Notes under the pieces: model-generated
What the model was told of the DNA's origin: nothing
Databases searched by the model: none
What the model saw: the letters and a program-made list of their open reading frames with translations, nothing else
Position numbers and translations under genes: made by a program
Shown here: positions 5,911-7,578 of the stretch, one piece after another
Layout: every line of letters begins with the position of its first letter
How positions within the stretch are numbered: position 1 is the first letter of the stretch
From: a virus
Lineage: Duplodnaviria; Heunggongvirae; Uroviricota; Caudoviricetes
Virus record (IMG/VR): IMGVR_UViG_2531839237_000019
Direction: 5' to 3' (one strand)
Length of the DNA: 8,037 bases

Positions 5911-6136
5911 CGCGAGTGCGTGTAACTTTTGATGTCATTCCCGTAGAAACACCGGACAAATTTTCGCTGACAGGTCATGCAGAAGGTATAAATCTGCAGA
6001 TTATGGACAATTACGGATATCCGGCAAGAGCCGGAAAAAGCATGCCGCCTCTAATTCTCAGTGGAAGATGGACTTGATTATACTCATTGCATTGTCAGAA
6101 ATAGTTATCCATTAAAGGCTGGCTATTCCAAACAGG

Positions 6137-6164
6137 ATGTTGATTACAAAAATGTAATCAACAT
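6137..6164. promoter_or_regulatory. 28-bp perfect palindrome (12-bp arms, 4-bp spacer); candidate dimeric regulator site
   Basis: ATGTTGATTACA-AAAA-TGTAATCAACAT; the arms are exact reverse complements. It lies about 27 bp upstream of a TATAAT hexamer and about 165 bp upstream of the ModA-like gene start. Confidence 0.45.
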
Positions 6165-6190
6165 GTAAGGTTTATACTCTTCAATATGCG

Positions 6191-6196
6191 TATAAT
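6191..6196 (+). promoter_or_regulatory. Candidate -10 hexamer (TATAAT) for the moron gene
   Basis: Perfect TATAAT in an AT-rich region with no convincing -35. A second candidate, TTGACT, lies at 6210-6215. Promoter assignment is unverified. Confidence 0.3.
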
Positions 6197-6328
6197 TTTC
6201 CTTATTTTGTTGACTTTAAATAACAAGCTATGCACGAGGTAAAGTCGGATAAGTTTATCTGGATGTAATATATATTATTTGTAGTGTTTATAACTTTATT
6301 TCATGATAACCAATAAAAGGAGTTTTTT

Positions 6329-7087
6329 ATGAGGAACATAATGGCAGGTTTTTTAATATTCCTGTCTTCTGCTGCTTATGCTGATATCAATCTGTATGGT
6401 CCTGGTGGCCCGCATACAGCCTTGCTTGATGCAGCCAAACTTTATGCCGAAAAAACAGGTATTATAGTGAACGTTCATTACGGCCCACAGAACAAATGGA
6501 ATGAAGATGCCAAAAAAAATGCAGATATCTTGTTTGGCGCATCAGAACAATCTGCTCTGGCTATCATTCGGGACCATAAAGACAGCTTCAGTGAAAAAGA
6601 TATTCAGCCTCTTTATCTGCGAAAAAGTATTTTACTGGTAAAGAAAGGTAATCCTAAAAATATCCGGAGTATTGACGACCTGACCAGACCTGGGATTGGC
6701 GTAATTGTTAATGATGGTGGTGGTACCAGTAATACATCAGGCACTGGCGTCTGGGAAGATATTGCCGGACGTAAAGGGAATATAGAAACTGTCGCCGCAA
6801 TCCGAAAAAATATTATTTTATATGCGCCCAATAGCGGAACTGCACGTAAGGCTCTTGAGAATCAGCCTGGAGCAGATGTCTGGATAACCTGGGCTGACTG
6901 GGCAGCCAGTAATCCAGAAATTGGTGATGTCGTGGAAATAGCGCCAGACTACGTGATATGGCGTGATATGAACATTACAGTACGTCAGGATGCAAATGAT
7001 GAAACCCGTCGATTTGCAGAATGGCTACAAACCGATGAAGCGGCGCCTGCATTCAAAAAATATGGCTGGACCAGGAAAGGCACTTGA
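6329..7087 (+). CDS. Secreted periplasmic substrate-binding protein, ModA-like (type 2 PBP fold), 252 aa
   Basis: AAGGAG SD lies 6 nt before ATG 6329, with a second in-frame ATG at 6341. The N-terminus MRNIMAGFLIFLSSAAYA-DIN looks like a signal peptide with an AYA cleavage motif. The C-terminus ...RRFAEWLQTDEAAPAFKKYGWT aligns with ModA ...KAFYDYLKGPQAAEIFKRYGFT, and the overall pattern matches molybdate/tungstate-type binding proteins. No permease or ATPase genes are adjacent. The gene is AT-rich. Confidence 0.8.
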   Translation: MRNIMAGFLIFLSSAAYADINLYGPGGPHTALLDAAKLYAEKTGIIVNVHYGPQNKWNEDAKKNADILFGASEQSALAIIRDHKDSFSEKDIQPLYLRKSILLVKKGNPKNIRSIDDLTRPGIGVIVNDGGGTSNTSGTGVWEDIAGRKGNIETVAAIRKNIILYAPNSGTARKALENQPGADVWITWADWAASNPEIGDVVEIAPDYVIWRDMNITVRQDANDETRRFAEWLQTDEAAPAFKKYGWTRKGT

Positions 7088-7090
7088 CAT

Positions 7091-7119
7091 CCTCGTCCTT
7101 CAGGACGTGGATTCTTTTT
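7091..7119 (+). terminator. Candidate intrinsic terminator after the binding-protein gene
   Basis: CCTCGTCC-ttca-GGACGTGG hairpin (one mismatch) followed by ATTCTTTTT, starting 4 nt after the stop codon. Confidence 0.4.
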
Positions 7120-7206
7120 CCGGATGCCGCGCCAGCGGCATGTAGGGGCAGCTCACAAAACGGAAAAAATTGTACGCTAAGCCTCGCCAGGTGAACTGAA
7201 TTCATT

Positions 7207-7230
7207 CCGATATGGGAATTCCCATATCGG
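7207..7230. promoter_or_regulatory. 24-bp perfect palindrome upstream of the hok promoter region
   Basis: CCGATATGGG-AATT-CCCATATCGG, exact 10-bp arms. No T-run follows, so a protein-binding site or RNA structure is more likely than a terminator. Confidence 0.35.
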
Positions 7231-7324
7231 GCGAAAACGGTTTGCTGTAACGGCAGAGTTAAGTAGGATTGCTGCGGGTGCTTGAGGCTATCTGCCTCGG
7301 GCATGAACACCAACGGCAGATAGA

Positions 7325-7378
7325 TAAAAGCCCCACCCGACTATAAATCGAAGTGAGGCCCCTATATGCTCGTCACAT
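7325..7378 (-). ncRNA. Predicted Sok-like antisense RNA of the hok locus
   Basis: On the minus strand a TTGACC -35-like hexamer (plus 7404-7409) overlaps the hok SD, with a weak -10 about 17 nt downstream. A hairpin GCCUCAC...GUGGGGC followed by UUUU (plus 7326-7362) could act as terminator. The transcript would be complementary to the SD and ATG of the upstream in-frame leader ORF (ATG 7366). Boundaries are approximate. Confidence 0.25.
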
Positions 7379-7422
7379 ATAGATTGCCTCTTACGGACCG
7401 AAAGGTCAAGGAGAAGCAGGCT

Positions 7423-7578
7423 ATGAAGCAGCAAAAGGCGATGTTAATCGCCCTGATCGTCATCTGTTTAATCGTCATAGTGACGGCACTGGTAACGAGG
7501 AAAGACCTCTGCGAGGTACGAATCCGAACCGGCCAGACGGAGGTCGCTGTCTTCACAGCTTACGAACCTGAGGAGTAA
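7423..7578 (+). CDS. hokD: Hok-family type I toxin (HokD/RelF-like), 51 aa
   Basis: MKQQKAMLIALIVICLIVIVTALVTRKDLCEVRIRTGQTEVAVFTAYEPEE is near-identical to HokD/RelF as recalled; the paralog assignment is from memory. AAGGAG SD at 7408-7413 with a 9-nt spacer. An in-frame upstream extension from ATG 7366 (the 70-aa track ORF) may be the mok-equivalent leader ORF. Confidence 0.9.
   Translation: MKQQKAMLIALIVICLIVIVTALVTRKDLCEVRIRTGQTEVAVFTAYEPEE

Follow-up and report, generated by a model that had tools for sequence, protein, structure and literature searches.

The window analysed here is an 8,037-nucleotide stretch of a caudoviricete virus (IMG/VR record IMGVR_UViG_2531839237_000019), and within it we examined a gene that is flanked by replication genes and a DUF1627 gene on the left and by sok/hok on the right. 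An earlier note, made from the sequence of the window, had described positions 5911–7119 as an AT-rich moron encoding a solitary, secreted, ModA-like periplasmic binding protein. The list of open reading frames places the coding sequence at 6329–7087 on the plus strand, ending in a TGA at 7085–7087, and the 252-residue product matches the Pfam family SBP_bac_11 over residues 20–247 (E = 5.5e-34) as a single domain. The identity of the coding sequence to annotated copies marks the gene as paa, also called adfO, which encodes a solute-binding protein of the AcfC/PEB3 family. The span given in the earlier note does contain paa, but it also reaches into a fimbrial pseudogene relic at 5663–6127, covering its 3' part.

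To place the gene among known sequences, we searched 5,426 complete E. coli genomes by megablast and found the coding sequence in 611 of them, 564 at 99% identity or higher; of the 618 matched places, 582 were chromosomal and 36 were on plasmids. Many O157:H7 and O111:H8 strains carry a 100% identical coding sequence, which RefSeq labels "paa: AcfC family adhesin Paa", and the protein matches cluster P0001 (616 members, "AcfC family adhesin Paa") at 100% identity. Phage records in INPHARED/GenBank, the "PPompW" prophages of O157, agree in gene order, with 99.9% DNA identity, and carry the label [quoted passage not shown]. In the published work on O-island 57 (CP-933O), adfO is z2053, it is elsewhere written "adfO (paa)", and it always adjoins ckf (z2054), a gene of the hok family. 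According to one paper, the EDL933 protein and the Paa of porcine enteropathogenic E. coli are identical. The gene in the window thus agrees with published paa/adfO in coding sequence (100% identical to RefSeq paa), in prophage context and in having hok ("ckf") immediately downstream. There is no difference of substance. In strain PV15-279 (O157:H7), IS1203 interrupts the DnaT-like replication gene of the same prophage (L002 3198–4410), whereas that gene is intact here (3132–4247).

Because the gene is paa/adfO, the novelty implied by the earlier note does not hold: the gene is already named in RefSeq and in phage records, and mutant phenotypes have been published. As a well-known marker of adherence and virulence in E. 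coli O157:H7 and pig-pathogenic E. coli, it has carried a name since 1999–2008; it serves in routine polymerase chain reaction typing of pig and Shiga-toxin-producing strains, and two of its close relatives have crystal structures. What the present analysis adds are the limits of a mobile cassette (6135–7147) and of the cargo region around it (5440–7246), the orphan status of the gene across its family, and the finding that the product is "ModA-like" only at the level of the fold.

Export and family membership of the product

The first 18 residues of the product (6329–6382, plus strand) read as a Sec signal peptide, MRNIMAGFLIFLSSAAYA, with an n-h-c layout and predicted cleavage between AYA and the following D. 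This reading is in agreement with the alignment to PEB3, whose mature crystal construct (2hxw) starts at the residue aligned to D19; with the AlphaFold2 (AF2) model, in which the predicted local distance difference test score (pLDDT) is below 65 over residues 1–20 and the chain is ordered only from residue 20; and with the equivalent hydrophobic N-terminal segment present in all 36 aligned homologues. No lipobox cysteine was found in the signal peptide. Translation is served by a Shine-Dalgarno site, AAGGAG, at 6317–6322 on the plus strand, 6 nt 5' of the ATG at 6329, and alignment to two diverged plasmid copies showed both the site and the ATG to be unchanged. The reading frame, the Pfam match, the PEB3 alignment, the AF2 model and the N-termini of the homologues together confirm a binding-protein gene with a signal peptide. 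The word "secreted", as used in the earlier note, goes further than this evidence, which supports a product exported to the periplasm; AcfC likewise fractionates with the periplasm.

The closest solved structures are those of C. jejuni PEB3 (E = 1.2e-81) and V. cholerae AcfC (E = 3.5e-81), both aligned over residues 11–248, covering the whole mature protein. The AF2 model of the product has a pLDDT of 90.5, and Foldseek superposed it on AcfC (4jb7; template modelling [TM] score 0.90, root-mean-square deviation 1.0) and PEB3 (3fj7; TM 0.89, root-mean-square deviation 1.3), in each case at 52% identity. The motifs YGPGGPH, GASEQSA, SNTSGTGVWED, PNSG.AR and WITW.DW are all present in the product, and among 36 homologues, with identities as low as 52%, they vary little or not at all. 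In the model, YGPGGPH (residues 23–29), GASEQSA (70–76), SNTSGTGVWED (134–144) and PNSGTAR (167–173) lie at strand-to-helix junctions. Class-II binding proteins bind small anions at strand-to-helix loops. Taken together, these data identify the product as a member of the AcfC/PEB3/Paa family and as a single-domain class-II solute-binding protein.

The two characterized relatives resemble Paa in different ways. PEB3 (2hxw, 3fj7, 3fjg and 3fir) shares the signal peptide followed by a single domain of similar sequence over the mature length, the SNTSGTGVWED loop, and a solitary gene. In contrast with Paa, PEB3 is an N-glycoprotein, and the stretch of Paa aligned to its DFNVS segment, which we take to be the glycosylation sequon, reads DSFSEKD and contains no asparagine. 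The two also differ in that PEB3 is encoded on the chromosome while paa is prophage-borne, and in that Lys135 of PEB3 is replaced by threonine. AcfC, with an equally close structural alignment, is likewise a colonisation factor encoded on a mobile virulence island, but acfC follows the chemoreceptor gene acfB, is under ToxT control and has a role in chemotaxis, whereas paa stands alone in a lambdoid prophage.

The fold described as "ModA-like" is accurate insofar as ModA is the nearest structural neighbour outside the family: in the Foldseek ranking, ModA structures come directly after the family's own members, with TM scores of 0.66–0.71 (about 0.70), 12–20% identity and E values of about 1e-13, and are followed by sulfate-binding proteins. 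The family itself is AcfC/PEB3/Paa, and the profile search and structure prediction that had been proposed as a check returned the SBP_bac_11 match and a class-II fold, while placing the product outside both the ModA and the Sbp/CysP groups. The ModA equivalog model TIGR01256 scored 18.3 bits against a cut-off of 62.5, over the last 35 residues only, and the ModA models NF002920 (17.7 bits vs 470) and NF007958 (11.7 vs 253) also fell below their cut-offs, as did the Sbp/CysP models NF008022 (22.6 vs 288) and TIGR00971 (21.5 vs 155.5). By sequence search with the product, no ModA chain was retrieved at E < 0.1, and Sbp and SubI in the Protein Data Bank (PDB) matched at E = 1e-4 over only about 100 residues. 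This comparison with ModA and Sbp draws on global fold ranks and on scores from hidden Markov models.

These results bear on the possibility that the gene encodes an orphan protein of the ModA/TupA/WtpA type, which would sequester molybdate or tungstate or pass it to the ModBC transporter of the host. Such a role would fit the shared Pfam family and class-II fold and the rank of ModA as the nearest fold outside AcfC and PEB3. It is at odds with the failure of every ModA model, with the 12–16% identity to ModA structures, and with the solved members of the family, which hold organic anions and not oxyanions; moreover, ModA has modBC as neighbours, and no homologue of paa adjoins modBC in the nine contexts described below. 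We consider this explanation very unlikely. The ligand is probably not molybdate, in line with the doubt already voiced in the earlier note over the molybdate contacts, and we found no support for its suggestion that the protein feeds a host transporter.

A solitary gene in a mobile cassette

Both the window and the annotated prophage lack genes for an ATP-binding cassette (ABC) permease or ATPase, and modBC is absent as well. To determine whether this is peculiar to the prophage copy, we inspected nine homologue contexts, namely the chromosomes of Edwardsiella, Enterobacter, Francisella and Campylobacter, as well as V. cholerae, Aeromonas, Salmonella IncF plasmids, Helicobacter and E. albertii. 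In none of the nine did the homologue belong to a cognate operon of binding protein, permease and ATPase. Homologues routinely flanked by such operons would have spoken for a displaced transporter gene; instead, since the nine homologues, reaching into other genera, have no dedicated permease or ATPase, the orphan status noted for this copy is a trait of the family.

The homologues of Edwardsiella and Enterobacter have a complete ABC operon less than 6 kb away. We rejected a cognate role for these operons, given that each includes a binding protein of its own and is set apart from the homologue by a gap or a gene, and that a second Enterobacter contig carries the homologue without the operon. 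Several of the other contexts have features of their own. The E. albertii homologue (L020 7001–7762) lies between a DUF302 gene and aga/phosphotransferase system sugar genes with no phage present, that of Aeromonas is in an AlpA-bearing island near a fimbrial usher of the CooC/TcfC type, and that of V. cholerae is in a locus resembling the ToxT/TagA pathogenicity island.

The solitary state of the gene could also arise if a phage had picked up part of an ABC uptake operon that has since degenerated, leaving a gene with no function of its own. The adjacent fimbrial relic does demonstrate that junk DNA occurs in this region. Yet the reading frame of paa is intact and highly conserved across the genomes that carry it, the signal peptide, Shine-Dalgarno site and family-invariant motifs are all retained, the other nine contexts are solitary too, and induction of the transcript and phenotypes of mutants have been published. 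We regard a functionless fragment as extremely improbable.

Qin-like prophages carry variable cargo in the slot between DUF1627 and hok, which paa occupies here. In K-12 Qin (L003 5347–6738), it holds flxA-ydfV-relBE, with relB-relE directly upstream of hokD, as the earlier note had stated; the genes and their function are unrelated to paa, although the position is the same. In a paa-less O157 prophage (L006), the slot (L006 1942–3902) instead contains a gene for an alpha/beta hydrolase, on the opposite strand, and blastn homology with the window stops at 5439 and returns at 7247, delimiting a whole cargo region of 5440–7246. A position in a variable slot beside toxin-antitoxin loci (relBE in Qin, hok/sok in this prophage) might suggest an envelope-acting prophage gene that shields the lysogen from superinfection or from other phages, and the matching phage family, PHROG 11834, carries no assigned function. 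PADLOC returned no match to a defence system at E up to 0.01, however, and the family is found mostly outside phages, in a Vibrio pathogenicity island, in the chromosomes of Campylobacter, Helicobacter and Francisella, and on enterotoxin plasmids by sta1. Furthermore, the published phenotypes are of host colonisation. This idea, also raised in the earlier note, found no support, and we judge it highly improbable.

Comparison with plasmids by megablast and blastn, with alignment of the edges, delimited a smaller unit within the cargo region. IncF plasmids from pigs and cattle carry copies at 86–89% identity, and the stretch they have in common with the prophage is confined to 6135–7147; the blastn boundaries against individual plasmid copies were 6135–7147 (L004) and 6125–7147 (L005). 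One plasmid copy adjoins the heat-stable enterotoxin gene sta1 and is flanked by IS1. The shared segment, on the plus strand, comprises the promoter-proximal spacer, the coding sequence and 3' hairpins. Because the plasmids share only this segment and the paa-less prophage breaks at 5439/7247, paa is a discrete AT-rich cassette of about 1 kb inside a variable cargo region of 1.8 kb.

The composition of the cassette differs from that of the phage genes around it. The G+C content is 43.9% for the paa coding sequence (34.8% at third codon positions) and 27.9% for the spacer at 6078–6328, compared to 51.3% for the early genes from dicC to DUF1627. The lower G+C content that the earlier note had judged by eye is therefore borne out by computation, and the cassette shared with plasmids supports the separate acquisition of paa that was proposed along with it. 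The gene also has the hallmarks of a moron, in that its composition is unlike that of the flanking phage genes, it is missing from related phages, and it has a predicted terminator of its own.

This terminator is a stem-loop predicted at 7086–7117 on the plus strand, with a core at 7094–7107 that begins 7 nt after the stop codon and is followed by a T-run (TTCTTTTT). The region 7080–7150 folds at −29.7 kcal/mol (z = −3.0), a value beaten by 1 of 200 shuffled sequences, and the core hairpin is kept in the plasmid copies; the prediction is consistent with the gene having its own terminator, as had been claimed. A second GC-rich hairpin, ATGCCGC-GCCA-GCGGCAT, is predicted by folding at 7124–7141 on the plus strand, near the 3' edge of the cassette, and is present in both plasmid copies.

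Upstream of the gene, 190 bp of conserved DNA accompany paa in the aligned plasmid copies. Right at the 5' boundary of the cassette is a perfect inverted repeat of 12 nt, ATGTTGATTACA-AAAA-TGTAATCAACAT (6137–6164), which is a candidate operator. It is kept in plasmid pSTEC388_3 and partly kept in pCFS3246-1, and it could be either an operator or a recombination scar. A TATAAT hexamer at 6191–6196 on the plus strand, invariant in the prophage and both plasmid copies, is a candidate −10 element, for which no good −35 element was seen. Of the AT-rich promoter region described in the earlier note, the AT-richness is evident in the spacer, whereas a promoter was not demonstrated.

Ligand binding and colonisation

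As for what the protein binds, the titles of PDB entries record PEB3 with L-phospholactate and AcfC with D-aspartate, and a review table lists phosphoenolpyruvate and 3-phosphoglycerate as ligands of PEB3. In enzyme-linked immunosorbent assays, AcfC bound heparin, chondroitin sulfate and mucin. With respect to phenotype, the literature reports that paa and adfO mutants adhere less to epithelial cells, that an adfO mutant had reduced adherence to HeLa cells and secreted less of several proteins, and that Paa is credited with a contribution to attaching-and-effacing lesions. The EDL933 gene was found by RNA sequencing to be induced in the contents of the bovine rumen and rectum, that is, in the lysogen.

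Based on these data, we propose that mature Paa folds into two lobes, with the four invariant strand-to-helix loops lining the cleft between them. Given the ligands in the structures of its relatives and the conservation of the motifs, this cleft would bind a small anion of the phospho-, sulfo- or carboxylate type and not molybdate. Such binding, whether periplasmic or at the envelope, would then promote adherence and colonisation, either directly, through contact with anionic host glycans, or indirectly, through chemotaxis or protein export, presumably with no dedicated ABC importer taking part. As a whole, we read the feature as paa/adfO, known as a virulence-associated gene that a lambdoid prophage of the enterohaemorrhagic E. 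coli type carries as cargo, encoding an anion-binding protein of the AcfC/PEB3/Paa family that promotes colonisation, and we place the probability of this explanation at about 0.93.

Several points weigh against this explanation or parts of it. The evidence on the ligand comes from the relatives PEB3 and AcfC and would extend to Paa by analogy. Lys135 of PEB3, a residue beside the SNTSGTG loop that was mutated by the depositors of the structures, is Val in AcfC in addition to its replacement in Paa, so that specificity may differ. AcfC was reported to have no role in cell adhesion and to act instead via mucin chemotaxis, and "adhesin" may accordingly be a misnomer for the family. With complete ABC operons near the homologues in Edwardsiella and Enterobacter, sharing of a host transporter is conceivable. 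Finally, a scan of 5850–7450 for sigma-70 promoters located none: it returned two sites, compared to 3.6 expected from shuffled sequences, and neither was well placed. As this is not above chance, we do not claim a promoter for the gene.

The conflict between the "adhesin" label of the family and the periplasmic, chemotaxis-linked behaviour reported for AcfC raises the question of whether the same gene encodes a periplasmic ligand sensor that acts via a chemoreceptor or a secretion pathway and is not an adhesin, with the adherence defects being secondary. Consistent with this, AcfC is periplasmic and affects mucin chemotaxis, the adfO mutant lost secretion of several proteins in addition to adherence, and the fold and invariant cleft motifs are those of a protein that binds small ligands. 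On the other hand, the AcfC/PEB3/Paa family has no known partner among chemoreceptors of the E. coli K-12 type, the chemoreceptor gene that acfC follows in V. cholerae has no equivalent beside paa in this prophage, and the literature assigns Paa the role of an adhesin. We hold the sensor to be a serious possibility, if somewhat on the doubtful side.

A more specific proposal, which we put forward tentatively and think rather doubtful in its entirety, is that Paa is no adhesin but senses a phospho- or sulfo-metabolite of the host in the periplasm and affects adherence indirectly, by way of chemotaxis or protein export, and that 6135–7147, with the conserved inverted repeat at its 5' edge and the paired hairpins at its 3' edge, forms a regulatory unit complete in itself, which would have passed between lambdoid prophages and IncF enterotoxin plasmids.

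Neighbouring features

The pseudogene relic that precedes the cassette (5663–6127, plus strand) derives from a PapH-like fimbrial minor subunit. It is frameshifted, contains internal stops and is spread over three reading frames, and RefSeq annotates it over about 5635–6168 as "fimbrial protein, frameshifted; internal stop". A Pfam scan of the hand-stitched translation of the relic yielded no match at E up to 0.01, and the identification was made by DNA similarity instead: an intact counterpart of 588 bp (L021 6931–7518), 86% identical to the relic, is part of a Pap-like chaperone-usher operon in E. coli O19:H7 730V1. It lies just upstream of the cassette and outside the segment common to the plasmid copies of paa. 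A search around the intact Pap-like operon of 730V1 turned up no gene resembling paa, so the relic and paa need not share an origin.

Downstream of the cassette, a 24-bp perfect palindrome, CCGATATGGGAATTCCCATATCGG, is located at 7207–7230, between the cassette and sok, in the stretch that is missing from prophage L006. The sok RNA itself matches its Rfam family at 7276–7425 (103.9 bits), and the mok/hok reading frames are at 7366–7578 (Pfam HOK_GEF, E = 1.7e-21), forming the type I toxin-antitoxin locus that appears as "ckf" in the O-island 57 literature. At the other end of the window, the small RNA DicF was detected at 109–158 on the minus strand (Rfam RF00039, 49.4 bits against a gathering score of 48), which fits the Qin-like dicB-dicF-ydfC-dicA-dicC layout of the prophage.

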